A stretch of 64,000 nt of DNA, from contig CAXBQP010000003.1 in assembly GCA_963978095.1 (NCBI GenBank), positions 32,001-96,000 of the forward strand. Reading direction: 5' to 3'. The notes below the pieces were generated by a model that saw only the letters and a program-made list of their open reading frames with translations, was not told where the DNA came from and made no database searches. Both the position numbers and the translations under genes were made by a program. Positions within the stretch are counted from its first letter, which is position 1. Every line of letters begins with the position of its first letter. The stretch is from an uncultured bacterium. GTDB taxonomy: Bacteria > Gemmatimonadota > Gemmatimonadetes > Gemmatimonadales > Gemmatimonadaceae. Below, piece after piece: positions 954 through 31,448 of this stretch.

Positions 954-3899
954 TCAGCGTTTGGTCTCGAGCCAGTTGGGCCCAGTCCCGATATCCACAA
1001 CCAGTGGAACATCGAGTTGCACGGCCGTGGTCATCTCGTGATTCACCAAGTCCCGCAGCGTCTCGAGTTCGTCGGGTGGACACTCGAACACGAGTTCATC
1101 GTGTACTTGCAGCAGCATGCGACTCGCGAGGGCGCGTTCCCGCAACGCATGGTGCAGCCGGATCATGGCCACCTTGATCAGGTCAGCGGCCGACCCCTGA
1201 ATCGGTGAGTTCTGTGCGGTCCGCTCACCGAAGGCGCGGATGTTGAAGTTGCGATCCTTGATCTCCGGGATGTACCGACGCCGCTTGAAGATCGTCTCCA
1301 CGTAGCCATTGACCCGCGCTTGTTCGACGGTGGAGTCCAGGAATCTCCGTACGCCGGCGAAGCGCTCGAAGTACGTCTCGATGAACGCCTTGGCCTCGGC
1401 CACTTCGATCTTCAACTGCCGCGACAAGGCGAACGCTCCCTGGCCATAGATCGTCGCGAAGTTGATGGTCTTGGCGCGCGCCCGCATCTCGCTGGTGACC
1501 GCGCCGAGGTCGACCCCGAAGATGATGGCCGCCGTCTGGCGGTGGATGTCGCCGCCGGCCTTGAAGGCATCGACGAAAGCCGGGTCATGCGAGAGGTGCG
1601 CGAGGAGGCGCAGTTCGATCTGCGAGTAGTCGGCCGCGAGCATCGTCCATCCAGGCTCGGGGATGAATCCCTTGCGGATCTCCTTGCCGAGGTCGCGACG
1701 GATCGGAATGTTCTGGAGGTTCGGGTCACTGGAGGCCAGTCGTCCCGTGCTGGCGACATGCTGGTTGAACGAGGTATGGAGCCGCCCGTCACGGGGATTC
1801 ACGAGGACGGGCAGTGTGTCGAGATACGTACTCTCGAGCTTGGCGAGCTCCCGATACTCCATCAACAATGACGGCAACACATGGCCTTCGTCCGCGAGTT
1901 CCGTCAGGACCGACGCGTCCGTACTCGGCCCCGTGGATGTCTTCTTCTTGACGGGGAGCCCGAGTTTCCCGAAGAGGATGGCGCCGAGCTGCTTGTTGGA
2001 GTTGATGTTGAACTCCTCGCCTGCCGCGTCGTAGATCTGCCGTTCGACGCCGCCGCGCTCCCGCGCAAAACGCGTCTTCAGTGAATGGAACCACGGCACG
2101 TCGATCGCGATCCCGTTCCACTCCATCCCCGCCAGGACTTCGACGAGCGGCATCTCGACATCGTGCAACAGCGCATCGGCGCCCGATTCCTTGAGCTTCG
2201 GCTCGAACAATTTCCGGAGACGGAGTGCGATGTCGGCGTCGGCGCAGGAATACGCACAGGCCGCCGCGATCGGCACCTGGTCAAAAGGGATCTGCGCTTT
2301 TCCCTTGCCCGTGAGCTCGTCGTAGCCGGTCATCGCGAGTTGCAGGAACTCGATGGCCAGCGCATCGATGGCATGCGATCGGCGCCCGGGATCGAGCACA
2401 TAGCTCGCGAGCATGGAATCGAAGTCGAGCCCGCGGACATCGACACCGGTCCGCCGCAGCACCAAGAGATCGTACTTCGCGTTGTGCGCGGTCTTCTTGA
2501 CCGATGGATCACCGAGGAGATCCCGCAGCGGTGCCAACTCGGGCGAGAGGATCGACGGAAGATTCGTGACCGTCGCCCCACCCCCCTCCGCGATGGCTCG
2601 CGCGGCGATGCTTCCACCACTCGCGGCAGACCTGGATGATGTCGGGGTCGCAAGCAGGAGGTCGCCCTGGTCGCTCGCCCACGCCGTGTGTGCGAACGGC
2701 AGATAGAACGCTTCTCCTTCCTCGAAGGCGATGGAGAGACTGACGAGGTTCGCGCGCAGCGGGGTGATGATCGGGGGTGCGCCGTCGTCGAGTACTGTTT
2801 CGGTATCGAACGAGACAAAAGGGGCCGTGCGCGCACGCGCGCACAAGGCCACGACCCCCTCGACGGTGTCGACCACGGTGTAGCGCGTCGGGATCGCATC
2901 CGGTACCGCAACAGTGGCGGGCGACGTCCGCTCCGCGGTCGCCGCATCAGCGGTCGCCGATGGCGTGGCACCGGACAGCCCGGCGGTAGTGCCGAGTGCC
3001 TGTGCGGCGGCTTCCTGCGCATTGTTCCGGAACTCGAGCTCGACAAAGAGGTCACGCAACCGATTCCAATCCGGCGTGCTGACCTTGAGCGCGTCGAGGT
3101 CAAGCGTCATCGGCAAATCGTCGCGAATAGTTACTAATTCCTTGGACAGAACCCCGTTGTCCCGGAATTCCTTGAGCGCGTTGCGGGCACGGGTCGGTTC
3201 CACCTCGTCGACGTGGGCGAGGATGTTCTCGAGCGGTCCCCACTTCTCGATCAGGGCCAGGGCGGACTTGTCCCCGATCCCCTTGACCCCGGGAACATTG
3301 TCGCTCGTGTCGCCCAGGAGGGCGAGATAGTCGGTGACGCGCTCAGGGATGACCCCCAGGCGTTCGACCGCGTTGTTGCGATCGTACCATTTCTCGGAGG
3401 TGAAGCCCGGCCGACCATGCCATGGGTTCAGGATCCAGACGCCGTCATCGATCAGCTGAACGAAATCCTTGTCACCCGAGACGATCACGCCGTGGACGCC
3501 CCGGTGGGGCGCTTGGCGGACGAGCGTCCCGATCACGTCGTCGGCCTCATAGTGTTCGAGGCTGAGAATCGGGATCTGCATCGCCGCCAGGATCTGCGAG
3601 ATGCGCTCGACACCGGTGTCGAAATCGGCCTGCATCGCCGGTTCGAGTCGTTCGCGGGTGGCCTTGTACGCCGGATACCGTTCGTGGCGGAAGGACAGGC
3701 CGGCGTCGTGCACCCAGCCGAGGTACTCCGGCTTGTGCTTGTCCATGAGGCGCCGGAGAAAGTCGTAGGCGCCGCGGGCGATCGATGTATTCTCGCCCTT
3801 GGAGTTGATCAGCGGTTGCGCACCGTACGCGAAGAATGCGCGATAGATCATCGCGTAACCGTCGATCAGAAAGAGGCGCGGCGAGGGGGCTGGAGGCAT
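954..3899 (-). CDS. polA: DNA polymerase I
   Basis: 5'-3' exonuclease (LFLIDG, YKATR, EADD), 3'-5' exonuclease motifs (FDTET, HNAKYD, YSCAD), polymerase motifs (DYSQIELR, AKTINFATIYG, QVHDE). ATG 3899 preferred over 3932. Confidence 0.98.
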   Translation of the reverse strand: MPPAPSPRLFLIDGYAMIYRAFFAYGAQPLINSKGENTSIARGAYDFLRRLMDKHKPEYLGWVHDAGLSFRHERYPAYKATRERLEPAMQADFDTGVERISQILAAMQIPILSLEHYEADDVIGTLVRQAPHRGVHGVIVSGDKDFVQLIDDGVWILNPWHGRPGFTSEKWYDRNNAVERLGVIPERVTDYLALLGDTSDNVPGVKGIGDKSALALIEKWGPLENILAHVDEVEPTRARNALKEFRDNGVLSKELVTIRDDLPMTLDLDALKVSTPDWNRLRDLFVELEFRNNAQEAAAQALGTTAGLSGATPSATADAATAERTSPATVAVPDAIPTRYTVVDTVEGVVALCARARTAPFVSFDTETVLDDGAPPIITPLRANLVSLSIAFEEGEAFYLPFAHTAWASDQGDLLLATPTSSRSAASGGSIAARAIAEGGGATVTNLPSILSPELAPLRDLLGDPSVKKTAHNAKYDLLVLRRTGVDVRGLDFDSMLASYVLDPGRRSHAIDALAIEFLQLAMTGYDELTGKGKAQIPFDQVPIAAACAYSCADADIALRLRKLFEPKLKESGADALLHDVEMPLVEVLAGMEWNGIAIDVPWFHSLKTRFARERGGVERQIYDAAGEEFNINSNKQLGAILFGKLGLPVKKKTSTGPSTDASVLTELADEGHVLPSLLMEYRELAKLESTYLDTLPVLVNPRDGRLHTSFNQHVASTGRLASSDPNLQNIPIRRDLGKEIRKGFIPEPGWTMLAADYSQIELRLLAHLSHDPAFVDAFKAGGDIHRQTAAIIFGVDLGAVTSEMRARAKTINFATIYGQGAFALSRQLKIEVAEAKAFIETYFERFAGVRRFLDSTVEQARVNGYVETIFKRRRYIPEIKDRNFNIRAFGERTAQNSPIQGSAADLIKVAMIRLHHALRERALASRMLLQVHDELVFECPPDELETLRDLVNHEMTTAVQLDVPLVVDIGTGPNWLETKR

Positions 3900-3975
3900 A
3901 GGGGAAGTTTCGCCCACGGGCCGCCTTGGCACCAGCGACGGGTCGTCCTGACCCCCTGGGCCGTCGGGGGAACCC

Positions 3976-10338: not shown

Positions 10339-10366
10339 TTCCCCCTTCCCACTTTTCTTCGTGTGC

Positions 10367-11271: not shown

Positions 11272-12390
11272 TCAGTCGACCAAACGCAGCGGCATGAGCA
11301 GGCAGAGATACTTCGCGGGATCCGTCCAGCCTTCGGGTTCGATGGTCGCTGCGCGATCCGGAGCCTTGAAGGTCAGGCGGATCTCGTCGGTGGGCATGTA
11401 GCGCAGGATATCGAGCAGGTACGTCCCGTTGAATCCGATGTCGAGCGGATCGCCGTTGTAGCGCACCGGCAGTTCGTCCTGCGCATCGCCCAGATCCGGC
11501 GTGCTCACCGAGAATTTGAGCATGCCCGAGTTGAAGGACAGGCGAATCCGGTGCGTCTGGTCGGAGGCGACGATCAACATGCGCTTGAGCGCGCTGGCGA
11601 ACGCGGCCTTGTCGATGGTGGCGACCTTGTCGTTGTCCTTCGGAATCACCTGATCGTACGGCGGATACGGTCCTTCGATCAGGCGCGTGAAGACCGAGGT
11701 GAACGGGGAACGGAAGCCCAGATGGTTGTCCCCCTGCGCAACCTCCAGCTCCTCTTCTGCGGGGAAGAGGCGATGAATCTGGTCCAAGGCCTTCGGGGGG
11801 ATGATCAGGTCGCCCTGCGCGGCTTTGGCGGCCTTGGCTCCCACCGGAACGTCCATCTTGGCGAGCCGATGGCCATTAGTGGCAACCATCCGCATATGCT
11901 CGGCGCGAACTTCCCAAAGGACACCGTTGAGAATCGGACGGCTCTCCTCGGTGCTGACGGCGAACGAGGTATGCGAGATCAGGCGCTGCAGATCCCCCGA
12001 AGGAATGCGGAGCGCCTTCTCAAAGGCAACAGCGGGGAAGCTCGGAAACTCGCTCTTGGGCAATCCCAGAAGTTTGAACTTGGAACGTCCACAGTCGAGC
12101 GTGATGCGCTGATCGCCCGTTGCGGAGATCTTCACCGATGCTGGCGGAAGCTCGCGGGCGATTTCCGCCAACTTGCGTGCCGGGATTGTGATGGCGCCCG
12201 GGGATTCGACGTCCGCGGTGACTTCCGTGCTGACCGCGATATCCAAATCGGTGCCCGAGATACGGATGCCCTTCTCGGTGGTCTGCACGAGGAGATTTGC
12301 GAGGACCGGCAACGTCGTCTTGGACGGAACTGCCGGCGTGACCGCAGCGAGCCCTTCCTGCAACTTCTCACGCGAGATGGTAAATCGCAT
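11272..12390 (-). CDS. dnaN: DNA polymerase III beta sliding clamp
   Basis: GTDLD, SRPILNGV, ATNGHRL, LIEGPYP, LLMPLR; lies downstream of dnaA. Confidence 0.98.
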   Translation of the reverse strand: MRFTISREKLQEGLAAVTPAVPSKTTLPVLANLLVQTTEKGIRISGTDLDIAVSTEVTADVESPGAITIPARKLAEIARELPPASVKISATGDQRITLDCGRSKFKLLGLPKSEFPSFPAVAFEKALRIPSGDLQRLISHTSFAVSTEESRPILNGVLWEVRAEHMRMVATNGHRLAKMDVPVGAKAAKAAQGDLIIPPKALDQIHRLFPAEEELEVAQGDNHLGFRSPFTSVFTRLIEGPYPPYDQVIPKDNDKVATIDKAAFASALKRMLIVASDQTHRIRLSFNSGMLKFSVSTPDLGDAQDELPVRYNGDPLDIGFNGTYLLDILRYMPTDEIRLTFKAPDRAATIEPEGWTDPAKYLCLLMPLRLVD

Positions 12391-12435
12391 ACCCGACCTC
12401 TCTCCTGGATGAGGAGAATGTGGACCCCGCGCCCG

Positions 12436-12600
12436 GACTAGTAGCTACATGAATTAGATATCTAATTCGCAGTAGTAGTAGTAAGGCGTGGATAGTTGAA
12501 AAGCAAGAGAAGTCCTTATATCACTTGGACTTCTGGGATGTCACCTGATGTGGAAACGCTGTGCAGAACGTGGGGGAGCCTGTGGGTTGTTCCCGATCCC
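12436..12600. other. oriC: Replication origin oriC, unwinding region in the dnaA-dnaN intergenic space
   Basis: DnaA-box-like CGTGGATAG (12487-12495), then GG, then DnaA-trio run CAG-TAG-TAG-TAG-TAA (12470-12484), then an AT-rich 18-bp palindrome. More boxes at TGTGGAAAC 12549 and TGTGCAGAA 12560. Confidence 0.88.
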
Positions 12601-12627
12601 CAACGCTGAATGGGGGCTGGATGTTGA

Positions 12628-14016
12628 TCATTGTTCATGACGCAGAGTTTCCCTCACTTTCTCCACACGACCCCGGAACTCTGCATCGTCCTTCATCATC
12701 TCCGCTACACGCTCCAAGCTATGGATGACTGTGGAGTGGTCGCGTCCGCCGAAGGCCTGTCCGATCTCGACCAGCTGCAGTCCGAGAATCTCTCGGGCCA
12801 GATACATGGCCACCTGGCGCGGGGTGGTGAGGACCTTGGTGCGAGTCTTGGATTGCAGTCCATCAACCGTGACCCCCCATTCTGCCGCCACCCGCTGCTG
12901 CACCGCGCGCATACGATCATGGCGGGAGGAGCGCGGCGGAGCAGCATCATTTGATTTCAGCTTGTCCCGAAGTGCTTCACGGGCCAGATCGACCGTGACC
13001 ACGCGATGCTTGAGCGAGGCGTAGGCGAGCAGCTTGATGATGGAGCCTTCGAGCTCGCGCACGTTCGCGAGGACGTGATCGGCGATGAAGTGGAGGACGT
13101 CGTCGGGGATCGTGTGTTCAAGATGATCCGCCTGGGCTTTCTGGCGGAGGATCGCGATGCGGTGCTCGAGATCGGGCGGCGCGATGTCGGCGACCATTCC
13201 CCATTCGAATCGGCTGACGAGTCGCGCTTCGAGTTTTGGAATTTCAGATGGCGGGCGATCACTGGTGAGGACGATCTGCCGCCCGGCTTCATAGATGGCG
13301 TTGAACGTATGGAAGAACTCCTCCTGGGTCGCTTCCTTGCCACCGAGGAAGTGGACGTCGTCGACCAAGAGGAGATCCGTCTCGCGATAGCGGCGGCGGA
13401 AATCATGCATGGTGCGCTTCGTGATCGAGGTGACCACGTCGTTCGTGAACTGCTCGGTGGAGATGTACATCACTCGGCAGTTCGGATCGCGGGCGAGGAT
13501 ATCGTGCGCGATCGCCTGCATGAGGTGCGTTTTGCCGAGTCCTGTGGCGCCGTAGATGAAGAGCGGATTGTAGGTTTTGCCCGGAGCGGCCGCGACGGCA
13601 GAGGCGGCCGCTGCTGCGAGTTCATTGGATCGTCCGATGACGTACGAATCGAAGAGATAGCGCTCGTTCAAAGTGCTGAGAACAACGCTATTATCGCGCT
13701 GTTGTGGCGCTATGATGGCGCTTTTTTGAGGCACAAAGAGGTCCATTTGCGACCTTTTGAGCCGTTCTGCTTGGACCTTGAAAATCACCTTGATCGGGTG
13801 CCCGATGCAGGTCGGGGCGAACCCTTCGAGGAGTGCCAGGTGTTTGCTCTCGTTCCACTCGACTGACCACTGGTCCGGGGCGGTCAGGGTCAGCGCGGTG
13901 CCGTCGAAGGTATCGGGGGCCAGCGGGGTGAGCCACGTCTCGATGACATGCTCCGGGAGCTCGATCTTTGCGCGATCGAGGAGCCGAGTCCAGGCGTCGG
14001 TGGCGGAGAGTGTCAC
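12628..14016 (-). CDS. dnaA: Chromosomal replication initiator DnaA
   Basis: YNPLFIYGATGLGKTHL, LLLVDD, TQEEFFHTFN, NVRELEG, GGRDHSTV. Confidence 0.99.
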   Translation of the reverse strand: MTLSATDAWTRLLDRAKIELPEHVIETWLTPLAPDTFDGTALTLTAPDQWSVEWNESKHLALLEGFAPTCIGHPIKVIFKVQAERLKRSQMDLFVPQKSAIIAPQQRDNSVVLSTLNERYLFDSYVIGRSNELAAAAASAVAAAPGKTYNPLFIYGATGLGKTHLMQAIAHDILARDPNCRVMYISTEQFTNDVVTSITKRTMHDFRRRYRETDLLLVDDVHFLGGKEATQEEFFHTFNAIYEAGRQIVLTSDRPPSEIPKLEARLVSRFEWGMVADIAPPDLEHRIAILRQKAQADHLEHTIPDDVLHFIADHVLANVRELEGSIIKLLAYASLKHRVVTVDLAREALRDKLKSNDAAPPRSSRHDRMRAVQQRVAAEWGVTVDGLQSKTRTKVLTTPRQVAMYLAREILGLQLVEIGQAFGGRDHSTVIHSLERVAEMMKDDAEFRGRVEKVRETLRHEQ

Positions 14017-15008: not shown

Positions 15009-16700
15009 ATGGAACGGCGTTTCTTTCTGGCTCTCGTGCTGACTGGCGTGGTGGTTGTGCTCACGCCGCGGCTTTTTCCTGCCCCGCCCAGGGCCGTCAC
15101 GGTGTCGGCGGATTCCGTGGGGGGCGCCTTGGCGCCGGCGATTCCGTCTGCTGCGAGCGCGGCGGTGGTCACGCCTGCCCCAGCGGGGGCCACCACGATG
15201 GGTGCGGCCGTCGGAACGGTACCGGCGGTCAGTGCCGCGTCCCAAGCGGTGCCCGCCGAAACCCTGACGGTCGAGACGCCGTTGGCGCGTACGGCCTATG
15301 GATCGCTCGGTGCGGCGCCGCTCTACGTGCAGGTCGACAGTTATCCCGCACTGAACGCGGCCACGGGTGGCGTGCGGATCAAACATGGCACGCAAGGACT
15401 GATCCGGTATCGGGTGATTTCGGCGACCGATACCATCCGGCTCGATGCGCTGAACTTCAGCGCGCAGCGCGGTACGGCGGCCAATGGCGACCCCACGGCG
15501 ACCTTCACCGGGACCGCGCCAAGCTCACGCGGGCCGGTGACCGCGACCATCACGTACACGATGTCGCGCGACAGTTATGTGAGCACGACGGCGGTCCGTC
15601 TGACGGGAGTGCCGGAATCGGCGTACCTGCTGGTGGACCTCCCGCGTGGTTTCGACAGCCAGGAAGCGGATTCGACCGGCGACCTGCGTGCCCTCGCCTA
15701 TGCGGTGAAGCCGATCAACAAGAGTGCCAAAGGGACCTTGTTCGCCAAGCTGGACGAAGGCGAGACGAAACTTGAGCCGGGGCCCCTGACGTGGGCCGTG
15801 GCGAAGAACAAGTATTTCCTCGTCGGCCTGCTCACCCCCGAGAAGGGGGGCGTGCCGTTCGCCGAGGTGAACATGGTCGGCGGGGCGCGCGTGAGGAAGG
15901 AGGCGCGACTCGCGCAGGCCACCGTCGTGATGCCGCTCAAGGGCGGTGCGGCGACCTTCGAACTGTTCGCCGGTCCGCAGTCGTGGGAACGGCTCCGCAA
16001 GATGGGACGCGAGTTCGAGACGGCCAATCCGTACGGCGGCTTCATGCAGCCGGTGGTGCAGCCGTTCTCGACGATCGTGATGCGGATCCTGCTCTGGATG
16101 AAGAAGGTGATCGGACTGAACTACGGCTGGGTGCTCGTCATCTTCGGCGTTTCGATCCGCATCATCCTCTGGCCGCTCAACGCCAGCGCCATGCGGGCCA
16201 GCTTGCGCATGCAGCGGTTGCAGCCGGAGCTCACGGCGGTGCAGGCCAAGTACAAGAGCGATCCGCAGAAGCAGCAGGCGGAGATCATGCGGATCTACAA
16301 GGATCATGGCATGAGCCCGCTCTCTCCGCTCTCGGGGTGCTTGCCGGCGCTGATCCCGATGCCGGTGCTCATGGCGCTCTTCTTCGTGTTCCAGAACACG
16401 ATCGAGTTCCGCGGCGTGCCGTTCCTGTGGTTGCATGACATCTCGCTGCACGATCCGCTGTACATCCTTCCGCTCATGATGGGGATCTCGATGTACGTGT
16501 TGAGCTGGATCGGATTGCGCAACATGCCGGACAACCCGCAGGCGAAGATGATGAGCTGGATGATGCCGCTCATGTTCACCTTCTTCCTCCTGCAGTCCGC
16601 GGCGGGACTCTCCCTGTATTACACCGTCCAGCAGATCGCGGCGCTCCCGCAGCAGTGGTTGATCGCGAACGAGCGGGCCAAGGCCAAGGCCACGGGCTGA
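15009..16700 (+). CDS. yidC: Membrane protein insertase
   Basis: N-terminal TM, periplasmic domain, IRIILWPL, GCLP, FLWLHDIS..DP, AGLSLY. Confidence 0.97.
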   Translation: MERRFFLALVLTGVVVVLTPRLFPAPPRAVTVSADSVGGALAPAIPSAASAAVVTPAPAGATTMGAAVGTVPAVSAASQAVPAETLTVETPLARTAYGSLGAAPLYVQVDSYPALNAATGGVRIKHGTQGLIRYRVISATDTIRLDALNFSAQRGTAANGDPTATFTGTAPSSRGPVTATITYTMSRDSYVSTTAVRLTGVPESAYLLVDLPRGFDSQEADSTGDLRALAYAVKPINKSAKGTLFAKLDEGETKLEPGPLTWAVAKNKYFLVGLLTPEKGGVPFAEVNMVGGARVRKEARLAQATVVMPLKGGAATFELFAGPQSWERLRKMGREFETANPYGGFMQPVVQPFSTIVMRILLWMKKVIGLNYGWVLVIFGVSIRIILWPLNASAMRASLRMQRLQPELTAVQAKYKSDPQKQQAEIMRIYKDHGMSPLSPLSGCLPALIPMPVLMALFFVFQNTIEFRGVPFLWLHDISLHDPLYILPLMMGISMYVLSWIGLRNMPDNPQAKMMSWMMPLMFTFFLLQSAAGLSLYYTVQQIAALPQQWLIANERAKAKATG

Positions 16701-18094
16701 CGCACACCACGCTGCGGGGCGACACGATCGTGGCCATTGCCACGGCCCCCGGCCGTTCGGCAGTGGCCATTGTCCGTTTGAGTGGGCCGCAGGCGGAGGC
16801 GATGGCCGCGCGGGTTGGTGTGTCCCTGCGCCGCTGCGCGCCTCGTGTGGCCACCCGAACGACACTGCATGCCTGTGATGATCCGGCGACGCCACTCGAC
16901 GACGCACTGGTGACACGGTTCCCCGCGCCTCACTCGTACACCGGTGAGACCGTCATCGAATTCGCGACGCACGGCGGGAGCATGGTCCCGGCCGCGGTGT
17001 GCGGCGCGTTGTTGCATGCCGGGGCACGCTTGGCATTGCCCGGGGAGTTCACGGAGCGGGCGGTCCTTGCCGGGAAACTCGATCTGTTGCGCGCCGAAGC
17101 CGTCGCGGACCTGATCGATGCGCGTTCGACCGCCTCACATCGCACGGCCCTGACGCAGCTGGACGGCGCCCTGTCCCGCGCGCTCGACGCCTTGCGTGCG
17201 GCCGTCATCGAACTGGACGCCCTGCTGGCCTACGACATCGATTTTCCCGAGGAGGATGGCGGGCCCGTGCCACGCGCCCGAATCTCCGTCGCGTGCGACG
17301 CCATTGTGGAACGCCTGGAGGCCCTGTTGGCCACGGTACCGGCCGCCGTGCTGGGCCGCGATGGCGTGACGGTGGTGCTCGCCGGCGCGCCGAACGTCGG
17401 CAAGTCGTCCTTGCTCAATGCGCTGGTCGGGGAGCTTCGGGTGATCGTGAGTGAGATCCCCGGCACCACCCGCGACGCCGTGGAGGTGTTGCTCGATCAT
17501 GAGCCGTGGCCGCTCCGATTGGTGGATACGGCCGGACTCCGGGAGACCCAAGACCCCGTGGAGCGGCTCGGCATCGAGGTGAGTGCGCGGTATGTGGCGG
17601 CGGCGCACGTGGTGGTGGTGTGCGGAGAGACGCCGGAGGCGCTGCGCGCGGCGGCGGCGGCGCTGCGCGCCCACACGGCGGCCCCCTTCATCGGTGCGCT
17701 CACGAAGACTGATTTAGTATCAATAAGTTACGATATAACGCCCCTGGCGCCGGATTTCGCGCGCGTCGTGGCGGTGAGCGCGCGCACCGGCGATGGACGG
17801 AGCGCGCTGCTCGCCGCGATCACCGCGGTGATGCACGCGCAGTTGGACGGACGGACGGACGGAGATGGGACGCAGACGCCGCTGCTCACGCGGGCTCGGC
17901 ATCAGTCCGCGATCACGACCGCGCGCGACGAGCTGCGCGCGTTCCGCGCGGCGTGGAGTGCGGGTGCGCTTCCGGCGCCGGTCGCGGCGTCGCACGTACG
18001 CGCGGCGGCTCACGCACTCGAGGAGCTGGTGGGGGCTGTTGATATCGAGGATGTGCTGACGAAGGTCTTCGCCAGTTTCTGCGTCGGGAAGTAG
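16697..18094 (+). CDS. mnmE: tRNA modification GTPase
   Basis: DTIVAIAT, PHSYTGE, GAPNVGKSS, GTTRD, DTAG, C-terminal FCVGK. Start is either CTG 16697 overlapping the yidC stop or GTG 16655. Confidence 0.96.
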   Translation: MTHTTLRGDTIVAIATAPGRSAVAIVRLSGPQAEAMAARVGVSLRRCAPRVATRTTLHACDDPATPLDDALVTRFPAPHSYTGETVIEFATHGGSMVPAAVCGALLHAGARLALPGEFTERAVLAGKLDLLRAEAVADLIDARSTASHRTALTQLDGALSRALDALRAAVIELDALLAYDIDFPEEDGGPVPRARISVACDAIVERLEALLATVPAAVLGRDGVTVVLAGAPNVGKSSLLNALVGELRVIVSEIPGTTRDAVEVLLDHEPWPLRLVDTAGLRETQDPVERLGIEVSARYVAAAHVVVVCGETPEALRAAAAALRAHTAAPFIGALTKTDLVSISYDITPLAPDFARVVAVSARTGDGRSALLAAITAVMHAQLDGRTDGDGTQTPLLTRARHQSAITTARDELRAFRAAWSAGALPAPVAASHVRAAAHALEELVGAVDIEDVLTKVFASFCVGK

Positions 18095-22055: not shown

Positions 22056-23363
22056 ATGCGCATTCCCGTAGACTCGTACCGCTTGCCGAACGGTCTGCTG
22101 GTGACCCTCTCCGAGGATCACTCGGCGCCGATCGTCGCGGTCAACTTGTGGTACCACGTAGGGTCGGCGAACGAACGGGAGGGGCGCACGGGATTCGCCC
22201 ACTTGTTCGAACACATGCTGTTCCAGGGTTCCGCGCATGTGGGGGCCAACGAGCACTTCGAGTTGGTGCAACGCGCCGGGGGAACCCTCAATGGATCCAC
22301 ATGGCTGGATCGCACCAATTATTTCGAGACCGTGCCGTCGAATCATCTGGCAACCGCGCTCTGGCTCGAGGCGGATCGCATGGGCGCCCTCCTGCCCGCC
22401 ATGACGCAGGAGAAACTCGACACGCAGCGTGATGTGGTGAAGAACGAACGCCGTTGGTCGGTGGACAATCAGCCCTATGGGACGTGGTGGGAGCGACTGC
22501 CGGCCCTGTGTTTTCCACCGGAGCATCCCTTCCATCATTCACTGATCGGCTCGATGGAGCACTTGAGCGAGGCGAGTCTCGAGGACATCGCCGAGTTCTT
22601 CCGCACCTGGTACACGCCGGACAACGCCGTGCTGACGATCGCCGGGGATTTCGATCCCGCGGAGGCGCGCGCGCTCGTGACGCAGTACTTCGGCCCCATT
22701 CCGCGTGGCACGGCACGTCCGGCATTGCCGTCGTTCGAGGTGGCGCCGTCGTTCGGCGGGGCGCGTCGCGCGGTGTTCGAGGATGCGGTGGTGTTGCCGC
22801 GCCTCTTCCTGGCGTTTCGCTCACCGGTGTTCGGCTCAGACGGGTACTACGCCGCGAGCGTCTGCGGGGCGATCCTCGGCATGCGGCGCGGGAGCCGACT
22901 CTACCGCGCACTCGTGAGGGAGCAGGAGATCGCGCAGGAGGTGTCGGCGTTCACCTATGATTTGAGCAAGGGGAGCGATCTGCTGGTGATCGATGCGATG
23001 GCGCGCCCGGGTGTCACGCTCGAGCGGCTCGAAGCGGCCGTGGGGGCGGAAGTCGACCGGTTGCATCGTGAGGGCGTGACGGCCGACGAACACACGCGCG
23101 CGCTGGCGCTGATCGAGACCGACCTGATCAGCGCGTTGCAGTCGGCCGGGGAGCGCGCCGACAAATTGTCGCAATTTGCTACTTATTTTGGCGATGCCGC
23201 GTTGCTCAACGACCAGATCGACCACTACCGCGCCGTGACCGTGGAGCAGGTGACGGCGTTCGCGCGCGCACACCTGGGCGCGGCCAATCGGGCCTCGCTC
23301 GTGTATGTCCCGCGTGCGGCCCGAGCGGATGCGGCGGCCGGCCCCGCGGAGGTGCGCGCATGA
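22056..23363 (+). CDS. M16 (pitrilysin-family) peptidase, catalytic subunit, no signal peptide
   Basis: YHVGS, GFAHLFEH (HxxEH), NGST, WLEADRM, YTPDNA. Confidence 0.93.
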   Translation: MRIPVDSYRLPNGLLVTLSEDHSAPIVAVNLWYHVGSANEREGRTGFAHLFEHMLFQGSAHVGANEHFELVQRAGGTLNGSTWLDRTNYFETVPSNHLATALWLEADRMGALLPAMTQEKLDTQRDVVKNERRWSVDNQPYGTWWERLPALCFPPEHPFHHSLIGSMEHLSEASLEDIAEFFRTWYTPDNAVLTIAGDFDPAEARALVTQYFGPIPRGTARPALPSFEVAPSFGGARRAVFEDAVVLPRLFLAFRSPVFGSDGYYAASVCGAILGMRRGSRLYRALVREQEIAQEVSAFTYDLSKGSDLLVIDAMARPGVTLERLEAAVGAEVDRLHREGVTADEHTRALALIETDLISALQSAGERADKLSQFATYFGDAALLNDQIDHYRAVTVEQVTAFARAHLGAANRASLVYVPRAARADAAAGPAEVRA

Positions 23364-25344: not shown

Positions 25345-25376
25345 GGCGTCGATCTGCGCGCCGGGAGGAGGGTGAC

Positions 25377-25402: not shown

Positions 25403-25441
25403 ATTCTTGTTTCTTGGACGATTCCCTCAAATCTCCTAAAA

Positions 25442-25470
25442 TGTAAATCATTGTAAATCAATATCTTACA
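25442..25470. promoter_or_regulatory. IHF-binding site
   Basis: TGTAAATCATTGTAAATCAATATCTTACA contains AATCAA-TATC-TTA, matching WATCAANNNNTTR. Confidence 0.6.
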
Positions 25471-25483
25471 ACATTTTTTCCTG

Positions 25484-25499
25484 TGGCACGGCAAATGCT
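25484..25499 (+). promoter_or_regulatory. sigma54 (-24/-12) promoter
   Basis: TGGCAC-GGCAA-ATGCT; GG-N10-GC spacing is exact. Confidence 0.75.
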
Positions 25500-25544
25500 T
25501 TCAGAATGACAGAAATCTTGTCCCACTCTGAGGAGTCAGTCACC

Positions 25545-26189
25545 ATGGCCCGCGCTGCCGCGCTACCGTCTGCGACTCGTTTCCAGCCCGCCTTCCGGCC
25601 GATGGTCCAACTGCAGGCGCTCTCGGATCACGATCTGGTGCAGGGCTATCTGGCCGGGGACACCCGCGCTTTCGATGCGATCGTCGAACGCTACCAGGGG
25701 CGGCTGCTGAACTTCGTCTACCGCATTGTCACGGATCGGGAACGCGCCGAGGATCTGGTGCAAGAGGTGTTCATCCGTGTGCATCGCCATTTGGCGCGTT
25801 TTGACCGGTCCAAGAAGTTCTCGACCTGGATCTACACGATCGCGTCGAATCTGGCCAAGAATGAACTGCGCAACCGCTCACGGAATCCGCTGGTGCTGTT
25901 CACCTCGATCACACAGGGGTGGGAGGACGAGGAGCGGCCGTTGGAGTTCGAAGATCCAACGGCCCGCCCGGACGACCAGTTCCGCAAGCGGCATGTACGT
26001 CAGATGGTCGAGGCCTCGGTGGCGGCCCTGCCGGAGCACCACCGGGAAGTGTTCGTGCTTCGTGAGCTCGAGGGGCGTTCGTACGAAGAGATCAGCGAGA
26101 TCACGCATTGCAACCTGGGCACGGTGAAGTCACGGTTGAACCGGGCGCGGAACTCCTTTGCGGAGATCATCGAACCATCGCTTCGTTGA
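25545..26189 (+). CDS. ECF RNA polymerase sigma factor
   Basis: AEDLVQEVF, FSTWIYTIA, SYEEISE...GTVKSRLNRAR; SD GAGGAG 9 nt before ATG 25545. Confidence 0.95.
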   Translation: MARAAALPSATRFQPAFRPMVQLQALSDHDLVQGYLAGDTRAFDAIVERYQGRLLNFVYRIVTDRERAEDLVQEVFIRVHRHLARFDRSKKFSTWIYTIASNLAKNELRNRSRNPLVLFTSITQGWEDEERPLEFEDPTARPDDQFRKRHVRQMVEASVAALPEHHREVFVLRELEGRSYEEISEITHCNLGTVKSRLNRARNSFAEIIEPSLR

Positions 26190-26389: not shown

Positions 26390-26791
26390 ATGGACTGCCG
26401 AACGTTTCGCGAGCAGCACCGCGCATATATGGATCATGAGCTGACGGCGCCTGACTTGGCGGCCGTCATGTCGCACATCAGGAGCTGTGGGACCTGCGCC
26501 GCCCGAGACGGAGCCTTGCGTCGCGGGCTTTTGCTCGCGCGGAATCTTCCGCGGATCCACCCCTCGACGGCCTTCCGAGCACGTCTCCAGGCGCGGCTCG
26601 CTGCGGAGCGGCGGATGGTATATTCCGAGCATGGCTCCTTCCCCTCTGAGTGCCCTCAAATCAGCCCTGAAAAGCGGGGCGTTCGAGCCGGCGTATCATT
26701 TCCATGGGGACGAGGATTTCCTGAAGGACAGCTGGATCCGCGACGTGATCGCCCGCGCCACGGACGCAGCCACCCGCGACTTCAATCTTGA
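26390..26791 (+). CDS. Zinc anti-sigma (zf-HC2) domain protein, apparently truncated; 3' end overlaps holA
   Basis: MDC..F...Y.D.EL...HIRSCGTC (HxxxCxxC) then PSTAFRARL; no TM segment follows. Confidence 0.7.
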   Translation: MDCRTFREQHRAYMDHELTAPDLAAVMSHIRSCGTCAARDGALRRGLLLARNLPRIHPSTAFRARLQARLAAERRMVYSEHGSFPSECPQISPEKRGVRAGVSFPWGRGFPEGQLDPRRDRPRHGRSHPRLQS

Positions 26792-27686: not shown

Positions 27687-27711
27687 GCCCACGCGAACGG
27701 ACAGGACCATC

Positions 27712-28761
27712 ATGAGACTCTGGCAACGGCGACCGATGCGGCACTTGGGTGCCGTCGTGGCGATGACGTGTGTGACGTCGGTGCTGACGGCGCAGACGGG
27801 ATCGCGTCCGACCCCGAGCGATTCGGCGGTATTCCGTCGTGCGGCGCAGATGGTGAATGTGGGGCAGGCGCCGGCGGCCCGCGCGCTGATCGATTCGGTG
27901 ATCACGGCGGCGAAGGACGGTTCGCCGATGCTGGTGGATGGTCTCTACTGGCGTGCGGTGTACTCGGATGCGCCGGATCAGGCGCGACGGGACTACCTCC
28001 GCATCACGGTGGAGTTCGCGCAGTCGCCACGTGCGGAGTGGGCATTGCTGCGACTGGCGCAGCTGGAGTTCTCGCGGGGAGGACGGGCGGCAGCCAAGCG
28101 ACACGTCGATCGACTGCTGCTCGATCACCCGGATGGTGCCACACGGACGCAGGCACAGTACCTGCTCGGCCGTCTCCTGATTGAGGACGGGGCGATGGTG
28201 CGTGGCTGTGCGTCGCTCGCCGAGGCGAAGCAGCGCGCGGCTCCGGGCGAGATCGAGCTCCAGAACCAGATCGCGTACGCACAACGTGCGTGCGGAAGCG
28301 CTGCGATCGCCGCGGACTCCGTCCGGCTGGATTCGTTGCGTGCGGACTCGGTGCGAGCAGAGATGCAGCGTACCGCGGCCGCCGTCGCCACAGCGCCGAA
28401 GAAGGCGAAGGCGGCCGCGGCGCCTACGCCCAAGCCGGAACCGAAACCGGAACCCAAGCCAGAACCAAAACCAGAACCCAAACCGACCATACCACCGGGG
28501 CCACAACCGCCCGCTGTGTCACCGGCCGTATCGGCCAGTGGCAATTGGACGGTACAGCTTGCGGCGTATCAAGTGCTCGGCGACGCCGAGCGGTTGAGCA
28601 CCAAGATGAAGGCCCGCGGCTACGATGTGCGTGTCACGGCCGAGCGTCCGTACCGCGTCCGGATCGGGCGCTTCGAGACGCGCGCCGAGGCCGTCGCGTT
28701 GGTCGCCAAGTTGCAGGCGTTGCAGATCACGGCGATCGTGGCGGAGGCTGAAAAGCCGTGA
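27712..28761 (+). CDS. SPOR domain protein with TPR-like N-terminus and PKPE linker
   Basis: Signal peptide, helical repeats, (PKPE)n, C-terminal WTVQLAAY...YRVRIGRF. Confidence 0.85.
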   Translation: MRLWQRRPMRHLGAVVAMTCVTSVLTAQTGSRPTPSDSAVFRRAAQMVNVGQAPAARALIDSVITAAKDGSPMLVDGLYWRAVYSDAPDQARRDYLRITVEFAQSPRAEWALLRLAQLEFSRGGRAAAKRHVDRLLLDHPDGATRTQAQYLLGRLLIEDGAMVRGCASLAEAKQRAAPGEIELQNQIAYAQRACGSAAIAADSVRLDSLRADSVRAEMQRTAAAVATAPKKAKAAAAPTPKPEPKPEPKPEPKPEPKPTIPPGPQPPAVSPAVSASGNWTVQLAAYQVLGDAERLSTKMKARGYDVRVTAERPYRVRIGRFETRAEAVALVAKLQALQITAIVAEAEKP

Positions 28762-31448
28762 GCAGGGAGGCCACGCCCTTGATGCAACAGTACCGTGAGA
28801 TCAAGGCGCGGCATCAGCACGCCATCCTGTTCTTCCGGATGGGTGATTTCTACGAGATGTTCTACGAGGACGCGGACGTCGCGTCGCGTGTGCTCGGGCT
28901 GACCCTGACCTCGCGCAACAACGGTGGTGCGACGTCGGTCCCGTTGGCCGGCGTGCCGGTGAAGGCCGCCACCGAGTATCTGCGCCGATTGGTGCAGCAG
29001 GGATTCCGCGTCGCGATCTGCGAACAGGTGGAGGATCCCAAGCTGGCGAAGGGCATCGTCCGGCGTGAGGTCGTCGAGACGATCACGCCTGGTGCTGCGT
29101 TCAGCGATGACCTGCTGGATGGTGCGCGCAACAATTTTCTCTGTGCCGTCCAGGTCGCGGGCGAGTTGACCGGTCTTGCGGCGGTCGATGTGTCGACCGG
29201 CGAATTCCGCCTGGTGACCGCGCGCTCCGGCGATGCGGCGGCGGCGTTGGCCCGGTTGTCGCCGCGTGAGGTGATCACGCCGGCAGGGAATGCGGATGCC
29301 GCGGTCTTGGCGCGCGGGCTGGATGTGTTGACGACCGAGCGCGACGGATGGGAGTTCGAGTCCGCGCTCGCCGAGCAGGCGATGGCCGAGCATTTCGCCG
29401 TGCGCTCACTCGAGGGATTCGGGATCGGTGCCGTGGACGCGGCGGCGGTCGGTGCCGCGGGGGCGTTGTTGCGCTATCTCCGCGAACTGCAGCCGTCGGG
29501 GATCCCGCATCTCGCGCGTCCCATCATCGAGCGGCCCGGCGGCGTCATGCCGCTGGACGACATGACGCGTCGCAACCTCGAGTTGGTGGAGTCCTTGCGT
29601 GGCGGAGACCAGTCCGGGACGCTCTTGGGTGTCCTGGATCGCACGCAGACACCCATGGGCGCCCGGTTGTTGCGACACTGGATCTTGGCGCCACTGACGG
29701 ATGTTGCCGCCATCACCGCACGTCTCGATGCGGTGGATGGGTTGGTGTCCGATGCCCTTGCCCGCGCGGCGTTGCGCAGCGCCCTCGATGGTGTTCGGGA
29801 TGTGGAGCGTCTGGCGGGGAAGGCGGCGGCGGGGCGTGCGAATCCGCGCGATCTGCGAGCGCTCGGCGACTCCCTGGCGCGGCTCCCGGAGGTGGAGCGC
29901 GCCTTGCGCCGTACGCCGCCAGCCGGCGCGCTGGCGGAGATCGTCACCGTGTGGGACTCATGCCCCGATCTCGCGACCGAGATTCAGCGGGTGCTGGTGG
30001 AGCGCCCCGGTACGAGTGTCGGGGAAGGTGAGACGATCGCCTCCGGCGTGGACGGCACGCTCGACGAGTTGCGGGCGATCGCCATCGGCGGCAAGGATGC
30101 GATTGCGGCGATGCAGACCGCCGAGCGTGAGCGCACCGGGATCGCCTCGCTGAAGGTCGGGTACAACCGCGTGTTCGGCTATTTCATCGAAGTCACGAAC
30201 ACGAACGCGCATCTGGTGCCTCCGGATTACCAGCGTCGTCAGACGTTGACCGGCGCGGAGCGGTACATCACGCCGGCGCTGAAGGAGTTCGAGGAGAAGG
30301 TGCTGCATGCGACGGAGCGGATCGAGACGCTCGAGCGGCAGTTGTTCGAGGCGCTGCGGGGTAGGGCCGGGGCACAGATCGGGCGATTGCAGGGGGTGGC
30401 GTCGACGCTCGCGCGTCTGGATGTACTCGGCACGCTCGCGGAAGTGGCGGCGCGTGAGGGGTATGTGCGTCCCGAGGTGCGCGATGGGATGTCGCTCGAG
30501 ATCACCGGTGGGCGCCACCCCGTGGTGGAGCGGATGATGCCGCGCGAGCAGTTCATCCCCAACGACGTGACGCTGACGCCGGATGCGCGGATGATCATCC
30601 TCACCGGTCCGAACATGGCCGGAAAAAGTACCATATTGCGACAAATCGGCCTGCTCGTGCTCATGGCACAGATGGGGAGTTTCGTGCCGGCCACCCGGGC
30701 GGTGGTGGGGATCGCCGATCGCGTCTTCACGCGGGTGGGGGCGAGTGACAATCTGGTGCGCGGGCAATCCACGTTCATGGTGGAGATGTCGGAGACGAGC
30801 GCGATCCTGCACACGGCGACCGCGCGGAGTCTGGTGCTGCTCGACGAGATCGGCCGCGGGACGAGCACATGGGACGGGGTGAGCATCGCGTGGGCGGTGA
30901 GCGAGCATCTGCACGAACAGGTCGGCTGCAAGACCGTGTTCGCGACGCACTATCACGAACTCACGCAGCTCGCCGACGAATTAGTAGCAGTACGAAACTA
31001 TAACGTGGACGTGAAGGAGGTCGGCGAGAAGATCCTCTTCCTCCATCGCTTGAAGCCCGGCGGGGCTGACCGATCGTACGGGATCGAGGTCGGACGGCTC
31101 GCGGGACTGCCGGCTCCGGTGATCGCTCGCGCCCGTTCCCTGCTCGCGTTGCTCGAGAGTGAACAGTTGGCGGAGGCGCTCTCCGGAGCGGGCGCTGCGT
31201 CCGCCCCGCGCGTGCCCCGCGCGGGCGGAAGTGCCGGACCAGGTGCCGTGCGCCACCCCCCGCTCCCGCGGGCCGACCAGCTCGGACTGTTCGCGCCCGC
31301 GGCCGCGCCACATCCCGTGCTCGCACGGCTCCGCGCGTTGCATCCGGACACCATGACGCCGCTCGACGCGCTGACCGTGTTGGCACAGCTCAGTCAAGAG
31401 GCCAAGCGGGACGCGTCCCCGGAAGCGCCCCGGGACGTGGCCGGGTAG
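28758..31448 (+). CDS. mutS: DNA mismatch repair protein MutS
   Basis: TPLMQQY, FRMGDFYE, TGPNMAGKST, DEIGRGTS, FATHYHEL, C-terminal QLGLF clamp motif. Confidence 0.99.
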   Translation: MSREATPLMQQYREIKARHQHAILFFRMGDFYEMFYEDADVASRVLGLTLTSRNNGGATSVPLAGVPVKAATEYLRRLVQQGFRVAICEQVEDPKLAKGIVRREVVETITPGAAFSDDLLDGARNNFLCAVQVAGELTGLAAVDVSTGEFRLVTARSGDAAAALARLSPREVITPAGNADAAVLARGLDVLTTERDGWEFESALAEQAMAEHFAVRSLEGFGIGAVDAAAVGAAGALLRYLRELQPSGIPHLARPIIERPGGVMPLDDMTRRNLELVESLRGGDQSGTLLGVLDRTQTPMGARLLRHWILAPLTDVAAITARLDAVDGLVSDALARAALRSALDGVRDVERLAGKAAAGRANPRDLRALGDSLARLPEVERALRRTPPAGALAEIVTVWDSCPDLATEIQRVLVERPGTSVGEGETIASGVDGTLDELRAIAIGGKDAIAAMQTAERERTGIASLKVGYNRVFGYFIEVTNTNAHLVPPDYQRRQTLTGAERYITPALKEFEEKVLHATERIETLERQLFEALRGRAGAQIGRLQGVASTLARLDVLGTLAEVAAREGYVRPEVRDGMSLEITGGRHPVVERMMPREQFIPNDVTLTPDARMIILTGPNMAGKSTILRQIGLLVLMAQMGSFVPATRAVVGIADRVFTRVGASDNLVRGQSTFMVEMSETSAILHTATARSLVLLDEIGRGTSTWDGVSIAWAVSEHLHEQVGCKTVFATHYHELTQLADELVAVRNYNVDVKEVGEKILFLHRLKPGGADRSYGIEVGRLAGLPAPVIARARSLLALLESEQLAEALSGAGAASAPRVPRAGGSAGPGAVRHPPLPRADQLGLFAPAAAPHPVLARLRALHPDTMTPLDALTVLAQLSQEAKRDASPEAPRDVAG

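Follow-up and report, generated by a model that had tools for sequence, protein, structure and literature searches.

Origin-clustered 25-bp palindromes, mostly within genes, in Gemmatimonadaceae: candidate operators of an NrtR-family regulator

In an uncultured bacterium of the Gemmatimonadaceae, four GC-rich genes near the replication origin carry five short, abruptly AT-rich patches. All five lie in the stretch of 64,000 nucleotides analysed here (the window), and a preliminary description aligned them without gaps, ascribed them to selection on DNA rather than protein, and proposed that they bind a ParB of altered specificity or another origin-region protein. The locus raises the question of whether the patches are a genuine DNA element and, if so, which protein reads it. 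Our analysis indicates that they are real, conserved DNA landing sites, most likely of a Nudix-related winged-helix regulator and not of ParB. Below, G000 denotes the genome under study, C3 and C29 its contigs, and other G-numbers the comparison genomes.

The palindrome and its chance controls

Checked on the sequence, all five 25-mers were found at the coordinates and on the strands first given for them (Table 1), and their translations returned the peptides reported earlier. The patches are members of a 25-bp odd palindrome, approximately ATTTAGTAKCA-N3-TGMTACTAAAT, with a core spacing of GT-N11-AC; this sequence symmetry supports the earlier reading of the patches as dyads, with predicted protein binding. 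G000 bears seven strong copies, namely the five in the window and a tandem pair at C3:22617 and C3:22648, and all seven fall within C3:22617-63003 around dnaA, dnaN and parAB, i.e., in 40.4 kb of the 2.98-Mb assembly, just as expected from the claim that the sites concentrate near the origin. Scanning with a position weight matrix (PWM) found the part of the window from 32 to 64 kb free of sites, as had been noticed before. The two 'partial matches' suggested in dnaN (11874) and at the oriC edge (12436) did not hold up, scoring only -9.2 and 0.4 bits. About two thirds of the sites are located within genes. Such an intragenic majority is unusual for repressor sites.

Table 1. Sites, host genes and origin markers in the window (positions counted from its first nucleotide)
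Feature	Position	Strand	Description	Score (bits)
polA site	3115..3139	-	codons ELVTIRDDL, end of 5'-3' exonuclease domain	30.0
mnmE site	17712..17736	+	inside gene	36.0
M16 peptidase site	23163..23187	-	first M16 gene; palindromic, strand nominal	33.4
mutS Walker A site	30623..30647	+	on codons GKSTILRQI	27.2
Second mutS site	30979..31003	+	codons ELVAVRNYN	32.2
polA (host gene)	954..3932	-	Pfam DNA_pol_A, E 1.6e-158	
dnaN + dnaA (origin markers)	11272..14016	-	Pfam	
mnmE (host gene)	16655..18094	+	Pfam	
M16 peptidase gene (host gene)	22056..23363	+	Pfam	
mutS (host of two sites)	28758..31448	+	Pfam	

The genome contains 709 windows of 25 bp with at least 16 A/T, and the earlier reader was free to pick strand and offset, so that the five patches might be a chance alignment of AT-rich, rare-codon stretches. 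The controls contradict this. The strict core AGTA.C.....G..AC has 32 matches on both strands of the 2.98-Mb assembly, among which an A/T fraction of at least 0.61 is seen only in the five window sites, the rest reaching at most 0.54. A whole-genome PWM scan placed the strong matches in the origin region and nowhere else. When each site was held out in turn, only 3-13 positions in about 6 million scored better, and these were the four training sites, C3:22617, C3:22648 and the reverse strands of these, the exceptions being C16:12982, C68:1335 and C43:14024 in two of the tests. With the seven-site PWM, the seven sites scored 31.9-38.0 bits against 21.3 for the best unrelated match and maxima of 22.9-24.5 in three 50-bp local shuffles. 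Furthermore, 2000 synonymous recodings per gene gave maxima of 19.3 (polA), 27.6 (mnmE), 21.4 (M16a) and 18.8 bits (mutS), and never reached the corresponding real scores of 30.0, 36.0, 33.4 and 32.2; codon shuffling thus failed to reproduce the sites. Taken together with orthologous sites in up to 12 other species and another genus, these controls refute the chance alignment, whose probability is negligible.

parS, ParB and the candidate regulator

Along contig C3, the GC skew switches sign somewhere from about 20 kb to 45 kb, and C3:46082 is the position of a perfect DnaA box. The preliminary description saw no canonical parS; this is true within the window but not for the contig, where a copy, TGTTCCACGTGAAACA, is located just upstream of parA at C3:23476, 8.5 kb before the window start. 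Canonical parS is present as a single copy in 22 of the 24 genus genomes, motif-free ones included, and is retained by nine of the ten genus genomes that lack the motif or show a single pattern match (G041 and G042 are outside the 24-genome count, and loci L114-L116 were also used for motif-free genomes). These ten genomes keep parS and parAB, except where the assembly is incomplete.

It is well known that parS is palindromic, multi-copy, origin-proximal and tolerated in genes, and that it adjoins parAB. The 25-bp sites share palindromy, copy number, oriC clustering, frequent intragenic placement and the parAB vicinity, the tandem pair being located 830 bp from the parS-parAB locus, and their dyad-symmetric GT..C...G..AC geometry could suggest non-canonical parS sites, one spacer base pair longer, for the chromosomal ParB. 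Nevertheless, we reject this reading, which has very little probability left, because a canonical parS is present, the lone ParB is conserved, and the motif co-varies with a different DNA-binding gene. G000 encodes one ParB_N protein, and the HTH with its recognition helix is alike in three motif-bearing and three motif-lacking genomes, contrary to the supposed change of specificity. Moreover, the 25-bp sites do not contain the 16-bp parS palindrome TGTTNCACGTGNAACA and are missing from relatives that retain ParB. They differ from parS in sequence and, most likely, in the protein family involved, and they coexist with a canonical single-parS ParABS system. A general caution follows: not every palindrome near an origin is parS. 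The second proposal, another origin-region protein, was right in spirit, its best candidate being an NrtR-family regulator.

The gene for this candidate binder is located on a different contig (C29:17946-18647, 234 aa). It is present in 20 of the 30 genus genomes, all 20 of which have pattern matches; eight of the ten genomes without the regulator have none, and two have one match each. In the MutS tree, a single branch (100/96) separates regulator-bearing from regulator-lacking genomes, so that the co-occurrence within the genus amounts to one event, and every other gene whose gain or loss falls on this branch would show an equal distribution. Since one subclade of ten genomes lost both the regulator gene and the sites, the system is dispensable.

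The link to the regulator is seen at its own promoter. In all 20 genus loci, the top-scoring PWM match beside the regulator gene is the palindrome (12.2-37.1 bits), and in 19 of them it lies 5-75 bp upstream. Across the family, 74 of 80 Gemmatimonadaceae regulator loci, encoding proteins 54-81% identical, have the palindrome within 120 bp upstream at more than 18 bits. The G000 copy spans the hexamers TTGACA-17-ATAATT and is weak (12.2 bits, with the G missing). In G012, G014, G021 and G023 the regulator gene is 49-77 kb from parS. In other genera, a GH3 hydrolase gene adjoins the regulator gene.

A covariance model built from sequence only (R1) found the element in 15 of 24 genus genomes and in none of 16 genomes from two other families of the order, which suggested a genus-limited element; this was ruled out by sites in other Gemmatimonadaceae genera, the impression having arisen because the rest of the family was not yet sampled. 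In G045, seven of eight credible pattern matches fall within 41 kb. The family-wide strict scan is noisy, with 0-11 matches per genome in the reversed control, and against this background 3/3 strict matches lie within 39 kb in G099, 4/4 within 99 kb in G089, and 6/9 share one contig in G100; PWM scanning of that contig gives 11 sites in 68 kb, in or beside other genes (ddl, the yidC 3' end, several intergenic regions). In four other genera the exact positions change and the origin-proximal cluster stays. A site upstream of (SIMPL-)parS-parA recurs in G002, G006, G008, G016, G019, G021, G024, G012 and G045, as well as in four other genera, and relatives have a palindrome about 20 bp past the dnaN stop codon. 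In G000, the tandem sites hold the sole sigma-70-like hexamer pair in their 1.2-kb region. A likeness to replication terminators (Tus/RTP Ter) was set aside, as the orientation of the sites about the origin is non-polar (left +,+,-; right +,-,+,+).

By its sequence, the regulator belongs to the NrtR family: a catalytically dead, Nudix-like N-terminal domain, the probable sensor, precedes a C-terminal winged helix. Residues 152-212 match Pfam NrtR_WHD (E 6.8e-22, 77.8 bits, cut-off 27), and the regulator profile matches BtAraR 5BS6 over its full length (positions 15-219, E 7e-35), SoNrtR 3GZ5 (E 8e-23) and the Nudix domain of the latter, 3GZ8 (E 5e-9). Pfam NUDIX is reached only at E 0.098 by the G000 protein and at 28 bits (cut-off 21.1) by a G053 homologue, and the REUXEE box reads RVAAAA in G000. 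An NrtR-type winged helix, an impaired Nudix box and an own-promoter palindrome are thus all found together. The recognition helix and wing, Lys and Arg included, do not vary among all 32 family members aligned. In a weak comparison of the ligand pocket, BtAraR Arg86 is retained, most members share its His131 whereas G000 has Gln there, and the position of SoNrtR Arg98, which contacts the ADP-ribose diphosphate, is Gly, as in BtAraR.

The structure of BtAraR (BT0354) of Bacteroides thetaiotaomicron, a repressor of the NrtR family, is known in complex with its operator (PDB 5BS6/5DD4): the dimer spans 25 bp and is two-fold symmetric around the central base pair, and A6, G7 and T8 of the operator, at -8/-7/-6 from the centre, are the triplet contacted by Arg205 and Lys179 (PMC4666351). 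The invariant A5 G6 T7 of the G000 palindrome has equal offsets, and its GT-N11-AC corresponds to the outer GT/AC of the BtAraR GTGT-N7-ACAC. Both proteins combine a Nudix-like domain, a degenerate Nudix box and a winged helix, both have tandem operators on a promoter, and the two contacting residues are kept, Lys for the G and the wing Arg for the A (HKASFRR here vs. DKRNFRK, wing GR). As to differences, our motif has A-N, and then C-A, where the BtAraR operator has the inner GT of GTGT; in the candidate regulator, Ala stands in place of the intercalating Arg180 and Ser in place of Asn181; and the sites are mostly intragenic and origin-clustered instead of lying on sugar-catabolic genes. For NrtR proteins of most lineages, Rodionov et al. 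(2008) give a 21-bp palindrome with a GT-N7-AC core, along with lineage variability, and Shewanella oneidensis SO1979 (PDB 3GZ5/3GZ6/3GZ8) acts at NAD-gene promoters, from which ADP-ribose releases it (PMC2330246). Our candidate resembles the NrtR proteins portrayed there in family sequence, palindromic operator, own-promoter site and the probable use of an inactive Nudix domain as a sensor, but its 25-bp GT-N11-AC lacks the GT-N7-AC core, and the targets seen here do not form an NAD-metabolism regulon. In a non-exhaustive search, no NAD or sugar gene was found at or next to the sites; the genes there are those for the regulator, SIMPL-parAB, polA, mnmE, M16 and mutS, together with the region downstream of dnaN, an SDF symporter, a TPP enzyme, PadR and ddl. 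A literature search found nothing that ties the NrtR-type family to origins or parAB.

Codon use at the intragenic sites

With reading frames set by a frame-local GC3 test, the rare codons noticed earlier were confirmed: the fraction of A/T-ending codons is 0.77 and 0.57 at the mutS sites vs. 0.19 in the rest of the fragment. Selection on DNA rather than protein is supported by these codons, by the recodings described above and by comparisons of identical peptides. At the polA site, the codons are the same in G012, G022, G014 and the other-genus G089, and the site is found in G045 too; in G100 the peptide is identical and the codons are GC-richer. Sites inside mnmE are also present in G012, G045, G043 and the other-genus G089, and the M16 site recurs in G022, G020 and G045. 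The mutS Walker A site is found in 12 of 18 regulator-bearing vs. 0 of 7 regulator-lacking genomes, the encoded peptide being identical, and none of 25 mutS loci from more distant Gemmatimonadota has it. At the second mutS site, the motif accompanies the residue changes P to V and F to Y relative to regulator-lacking genomes.

Suppressed synonymous substitution, as predicted for such codons, is a signal affected by ascertainment here. With all 18 regulator-bearing genomes included regardless of site presence, the mutS Walker A window is not conserved above the average, its score being 0.435 where the mean is 0.442 and 138 of 313 windows score lower. The second mutS site scores 0.278, and 6 of 313 windows are below it. 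The best explanation of the intragenic sites is that they were put in place by synonymous and a few non-synonymous changes.

Possible roles of the sites near the origin

We consider it probable that the sites are operators of a dimeric NrtR-family regulator and that the intragenic ones serve the region rather than each gene. Each dimer would cover one 25-bp odd palindrome, such that the A-G-T triplet located 8 to 6 bp off centre in each half is read by the recognition-helix Lys and the wing Arg. At the regulator promoter and upstream of SIMPL-parS-parA-parB, the putative operators overlap -35/-10 hexamers, and at both promoter-like locations the regulator would act as a repressor released by a ligand. 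At the intragenic sites, the regulator could be concentrated or bridged over the origin/parAB domain; alternatively, the sites could titrate it as the origin replicates. A regional purpose is suggested because positions change and yet the origin-proximal cluster lasts across genera.

If the same regulator binds, each intragenic site could instead govern its host gene as a roadblock or an internal promoter, the clustering being a by-product. That polA and mutS are DNA-metabolism genes, that the polA and mnmE sites hold the same place across genera, and that a regulator gene 49-77 kb from parS would be expected to have local targets all fit such control. However, the host genes are functionally unrelated (tRNA modification, a peptidase, and in relatives a symporter and a TPP enzyme), their domain maps reveal no shared position of the sites, and in G100 the sites fall at different genes while the same region is crowded. 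We therefore regard control of individual host genes as unlikely, and as a less likely purpose than the regional one. Four metatranscriptome runs of one study contained 6-10% of the sampled words; they are contigs and so carry neither transcript ends nor levels.

The single gain or loss event behind the genus pattern would also suit a different protein gained or lost on the same branch, or an RNA or DNA hairpin in place of an operator. Against another protein stand the operator on the regulator promoter in distant genera, kept in 74 of 80 loci at 54-81% protein identity, and the size, symmetry and contacted bases, which fit the solved BtAraR-DNA complex. As to a hairpin, the mutS Walker A site pairs at only 5 of 11 arm positions, positions 9/17 show no covariation (for instance, G/G in G024 and G/A in G008 and G006), the M16 site is antisense to its gene, and two G000 sites are intergenic. 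Such alternatives are improbable, and the NrtR-family regulator remains our preferred binder.

A bolder version of the regional reading, which we put forward tentatively, is that an NrtR-type regulator was recruited in Gemmatimonadaceae to provide a second mark of the origin domain, one gated by a metabolite. Under such recruitment, 7-12 high-affinity sites would be selected within tens of kb of oriC, in any gene, the strongest and most conserved of them adjoining the single parS; the regulator would organise, insulate or titrate the origin/ParB domain, and might thereby couple segregation or early replication to a small-molecule signal. RacA-ram of Bacillus subtilis, comparable to RicO-ricS of Staphylococcus aureus, likewise pairs a non-ParB protein with an origin-proximal motif. 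RicO, a non-ParB protein with a different DNA-binding domain and a membrane-binding amphipathic helix, has about nine origin-proximal motif copies spread over ~700 kb, and its binding and function were established by ChIP-seq, EMSA and mutants (bioRxiv 10.64898/2026.03.06.710092). The likeness to our sites concerns a specific motif confined near the origin; it would be one of the possible way of working and not of family.

Known NrtR-type regulators act at a small number of promoters, which belong to NAD or sugar genes; here, a known regulator family appears to be used unusually, with an origin-region set of mostly intragenic sites next to parS. The apparent price of the sites is rare codons inside essential genes and even residue changes in MutS. 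If the binding is true, this would be a clear natural case of a DNA-binding code overwriting protein-coding sequence, and clades that have the whole system could be set against sister clades that lack it, as a comparison provided by nature. In that case, a metabolite-sensing player would join origin biology in a phylum that has been little studied and has a ParABS system with a single parS.

Motif and site map around the replication origin

All five AT-rich 25-mers of the preliminary description were verified in coordinates and strands in the window, which is C3:32001-96000. Pfam confirmed their hosts as polA, mnmE, an M16 peptidase gene and mutS; dnaN and dnaA lie between these. In the whole assembly (GCA_963978095.1, hereafter G000; 2.98 Mb, 101 contigs, 66.6% GC), the strict core AGTA.C.....G..AC has 32 matches on both strands, and the only AT-rich ones are the five window copies. 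When each site was held out, only 3–13 of ~6 million positions outscored it, and nearly all of these belonged to the remaining sites, read on either strand, or to two tandem sites newly found just beyond the window. A matrix of the resulting seven sites scored them at 31.9–38.0 bits, the next unrelated match having 21.3 bits and three local shuffles giving maxima of 22.9–24.5 bits. A palindromic matrix, trained partly on the same seven sites, gave 27.2–38.9 bits with a next match of 20.2, and maxima of 34.1, 18.9, 18.4, 21.7 and 16.2 bits in five shuffles. Among 2000 synonymous recodings per gene, none attained the real site score. The top-scoring matches of the whole-genome scan are the seven sites, all situated around dnaA/dnaN and the parAB region, so that the proposed clustering near oriC was borne out; the GC skew changes sign between ~20 and 45 kb of this contig. 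The suggested partial matches in dnaN and at the oriC edge, at -9.2 and 0.4 bits, are not sites.

In an ungapped alignment of the seven sites, A5 G6 T7 A8 C10 A19 A22 are invariant. The motif is an odd palindrome centred at position 13; GC-rich composition resumes directly outside the 25 bp. In relatives, copies lying between genes come close to the perfect palindrome ATTTAGTAKCA-N3-TGMTACTAAAT, and in intragenic copies one half is degenerate. The tandem pair holds TTGAGA-18-TACCAT, the only sigma-70-like hexamer pair of that 1.2-kb region. Three sub-threshold matches listed in the table may represent weak or decaying sites.

Coordinates of the sites and associated features (C, contig; C3, CAXBQP010000003.1; L, extracted locus; other G numbers, related Gemmatimonadaceae genomes)
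Feature	Location	Remarks
Tandem sites	C3:22617, C3:22648	between membrane-protein gene and SIMPL-parS-parA-parB
Canonical parS	C3:23476-23491 (L001:11476)	~50 bp upstream of parA-parB
polA site	C3:35115	
dnaA and dnaN	C3:43272-46016	
mnmE site	C3:49712	
M16 site	C3:55163	
mutS sites	C3:62623, C3:62979	
Sub-threshold match	C3:9341-9365 (L002)	in PD40/amidohydrolase gene; rare-codon cluster; partial match, 17.6 bits
Sub-threshold match	C16:12982	20.2 bits
Sub-threshold match	C43:14024	16.9 bits
Long AT-rich intergenic stretch	window 25421-25519	5′ of ECF sigma factor gene (25506-26186); no motif match
Region of lower GC	window 37700-42000	GC 0.60-0.61 vs ~0.65; several AT-rich patches, AT skew reversal
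Regulator gene	C29:17946-18647	
Putative own operator	C29:17915-17939 (L148:1425-1449)	
Element directly downstream of regulator	L148:2237-2261	half-degenerate, motif-like; same place in most genus loci; 7.6-13.3 bits in genus
Same element in G053	G053:C51:101266	20.3 bits
Palindrome ~20 bp past dnaN stop	G012:C1:111015, G014:C31:9665, G021:C129:26472, G100:C14:71388	near-perfect
GH3 glycoside hydrolase gene	L279:3555-5390 (G053), L270:4174-6096 (G099)	other genera

A candidate binder of the NrtR family

In several relatives, which include metagenome-assembled genomes, the palindrome lies 5–45 bp 5′ of a 224-aa gene with NrtR_WHD and AraR_C winged-helix domains. This putative regulator is present in 20 of 30 genus genomes. 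Pattern matches were found in all 20 bearers, and of ten non-bearers eight had none and two had one each; one of the two, G017, is 61% complete and its match is motif-like. In the MutS tree a single branch (support 100/96) separates 18 bearers from seven non-bearers, so the co-occurrence within the genus is one evolutionary event and therefore weak evidence by itself. The putative operator at the gene's own promoter is the stronger argument for the regulator as the binder. The best matrix match of the locus adjoins the regulator gene in 20/20 genus loci, just upstream in 19, and 74 of 80 Gemmatimonadaceae loci, with regulator proteins 54–81% identical to that of G000, have a match >18 bits in the 120 bp preceding the gene; the family-wide operator consensus is aaTTAGTnaCnantnGtnACTAAtt. 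The bearer G006, an unpublished genome, is counted in the co-occurrence, own-locus, mutS-codon and MutS-tree tallies, and no conclusion rests on it alone; G052 and G071, likewise unpublished, enter only the genome-wide strict-pattern tally.

In G000 the putative operator covers the hexamer pair TTGACA-17-ATAATT and is 6 bp 5′ of the start codon. In G000, G022, G045 and G020 the TTAGTA of other genomes is replaced by ATTATT, so that the contacted G is missing, and the operator reaches only 12–16 bits. This degeneracy might loosen self-repression in the subclade richest in intragenic sites.

A 32-member family profile matched BtAraR (5BS6) over its whole length at 7e-35, SoNrtR (3GZ5) at 8e-23 and the SoNrtR Nudix domain (3GZ8) at 5e-9, which assigns the candidate binder, by sequence, to the NrtR family; its Nudix box is dead, REUXEE being replaced by RVAAAA. 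In the BtAraR–DNA structure (PMC4666351), a two-fold symmetric dimer occupies 25 bp. Relative to the central position, the operator bases A6 G7 T8 are at -8, -7 and -6; G7 is read by Lys179, A6 by Arg205 of the wing, and the inner GT by Arg180 with Asn181. Compared with these contacts, the invariant A5 G6 T7 of our motif falls at the offsets of A6 G7 T8, and the corresponding Lys and Arg are kept in the regulator and invariant across the family alignment. Arg180 and Asn181 are replaced by Ala and Ser, in keeping with the motif's inner bases, which differ from those of BtAraR. The usual NrtR operator (PMC2330246) is a 21-bp palindrome with GT-N7-AC; with its different inner bases the motif departs from this form but retains the outer GT-N11-AC geometry.

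Conservation of the sites and their relation to parS

The close relative G045 has the same seven sites within 41 kb. G012 bears the tandem pair, the polA and mnmE sites and a perfect palindrome ~20 bp after dnaN, its mutS sites being on a neighbouring contig end. This post-dnaN palindrome, found in several species and another genus ahead of small uncharacterized genes and an AraC-like gene, was not found at that place in G000 or G045. G100, G089, G099 and G053 represent four other genera. G100 carries 11 sites >18 bits in 68 kb, spanning the regulator gene, ddl, the mutS side, upp, mnmE-yidC, downstream of dnaN and the SIMPL-mnmG spacer. In G089, sites at the regulator gene, upstream of parA, in polA (with the same codons as in G000), downstream of dnaN and in mnmE lie within 99 kb, and in G099 and G053 the parA-upstream and own-promoter sites are 37–39 kb apart. 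Of the genome-wide strict-pattern matches, in agreement, 3/3 in G099, 4/4 in G089 and 6/9 in G100 are on these contigs, in a scan whose reversed-pattern control was noisy (0–11 matches per genome). The site upstream of (SIMPL-)parS-parA is shared more widely than any other target except the regulator's own promoter. Since sites are shared with four other genera, the cluster is an old feature of the family, while exact positions turn over.

At the first mutS site the Walker A peptide GKSTILRQI is identical in bearers and non-bearers. The codons GGA AAA AGT ACC ATA TTG CGA CAA ATY, or strings 1–2 changes away, are used by 12/18 bearers and 0/7 non-bearers, which have GC-ending codons instead; GC-rich usage was also found in 25 more distant Gemmatimonadota. 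At the second mutS site the motif is accompanied by P-to-V and F-to-Y replacements. The expected suppression of synonymous substitution was partly seen: in genomes chosen by site presence, the difference rate was 0.07 at site codons vs. a mean of 0.44, with 0/287 and 0/282 windows as low, but in all 18 bearers, unselected, the first mutS site had no excess synonymous conservation (0.435 vs. 0.442) and the second gave 0.278, with 6/313 windows lower. The pattern is one of two states, kept or decayed, and not uniform conservation.

The preliminary description preferred to regard the sites as non-canonical parS bound by a ParB with altered specificity, no canonical parS having been seen. This absence holds within the window, but the only G000 copy (TGTTCCACGTGAAACA) lies 8.5 kb upstream of its start. 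Exactly one copy was found in 22/24 genus genomes (the other two being 82% and 90% complete), so ParABS in this clade works from a single parS. Only one ParB_N protein is encoded in G000, and the HTH of ParB, recognition helix included, is conserved in three motif-bearing and three motif-lacking genomes alike; together these findings rule out the sites as parS and speak against an altered ParB. A hairpin reading also fails, since only 5/11 arm positions of the mutS Walker A site are complementary and positions 9/17 are without covariation.

Proposed working and significance

The analysis demonstrates the motif with its conservation and its clustering near the origin, as well as its association with the regulator gene and the family to which that gene belongs. 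By analogy with the NrtR family, each 25-mer would be bound by one regulator dimer, whose affinity would be lowered by a ligand in the Nudix-like pocket; through operators over -35/-10 the dimer would repress its own gene and the SIMPL-parAB promoter. The SoNrtR Arg that holds ADP-ribose diphosphate has Gly at the aligned position both here and in the sugar-binding BtAraR, and in two other genera a GH3 gene is found beside the regulator, which are weak hints of a sugar-like effector. In G053 and G099 this gene separates the regulator from an Fe(2+)-trafficking gene, which in G000 is the gene immediately before the regulator.

The intragenic sites probably act for the region more than for the genes that carry them, because clustering persists regionally while positions turn over; gene-specific roadblocks are a serious rival. 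Under the regional role, the sites may raise the local regulator concentration, bridge with one another, bound the ParB domain spreading from the lone parS, or titrate the regulator as they double early in replication. In the literature searched, we found no NrtR-family site set concentrated at an origin or placed inside housekeeping genes, and no link of this family to parS-parAB. Nearest in possible working are ParB-parS and the recently described RicO-ricS, with nine motif sites flanking oriC (bioRxiv 10.64898/2026.03.06.710092); the 25-bp site system is a member of neither.

Ten genomes (G001, G004, G005, G009, G010, G011, G015, G017, G041 and G042) have no NrtR-like gene and keep parS and parAB; apart from the single match in G017, they are also without 25-bp sites. 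This subclade is best read as a loss, and it offers a natural comparison of clades with and without the system.
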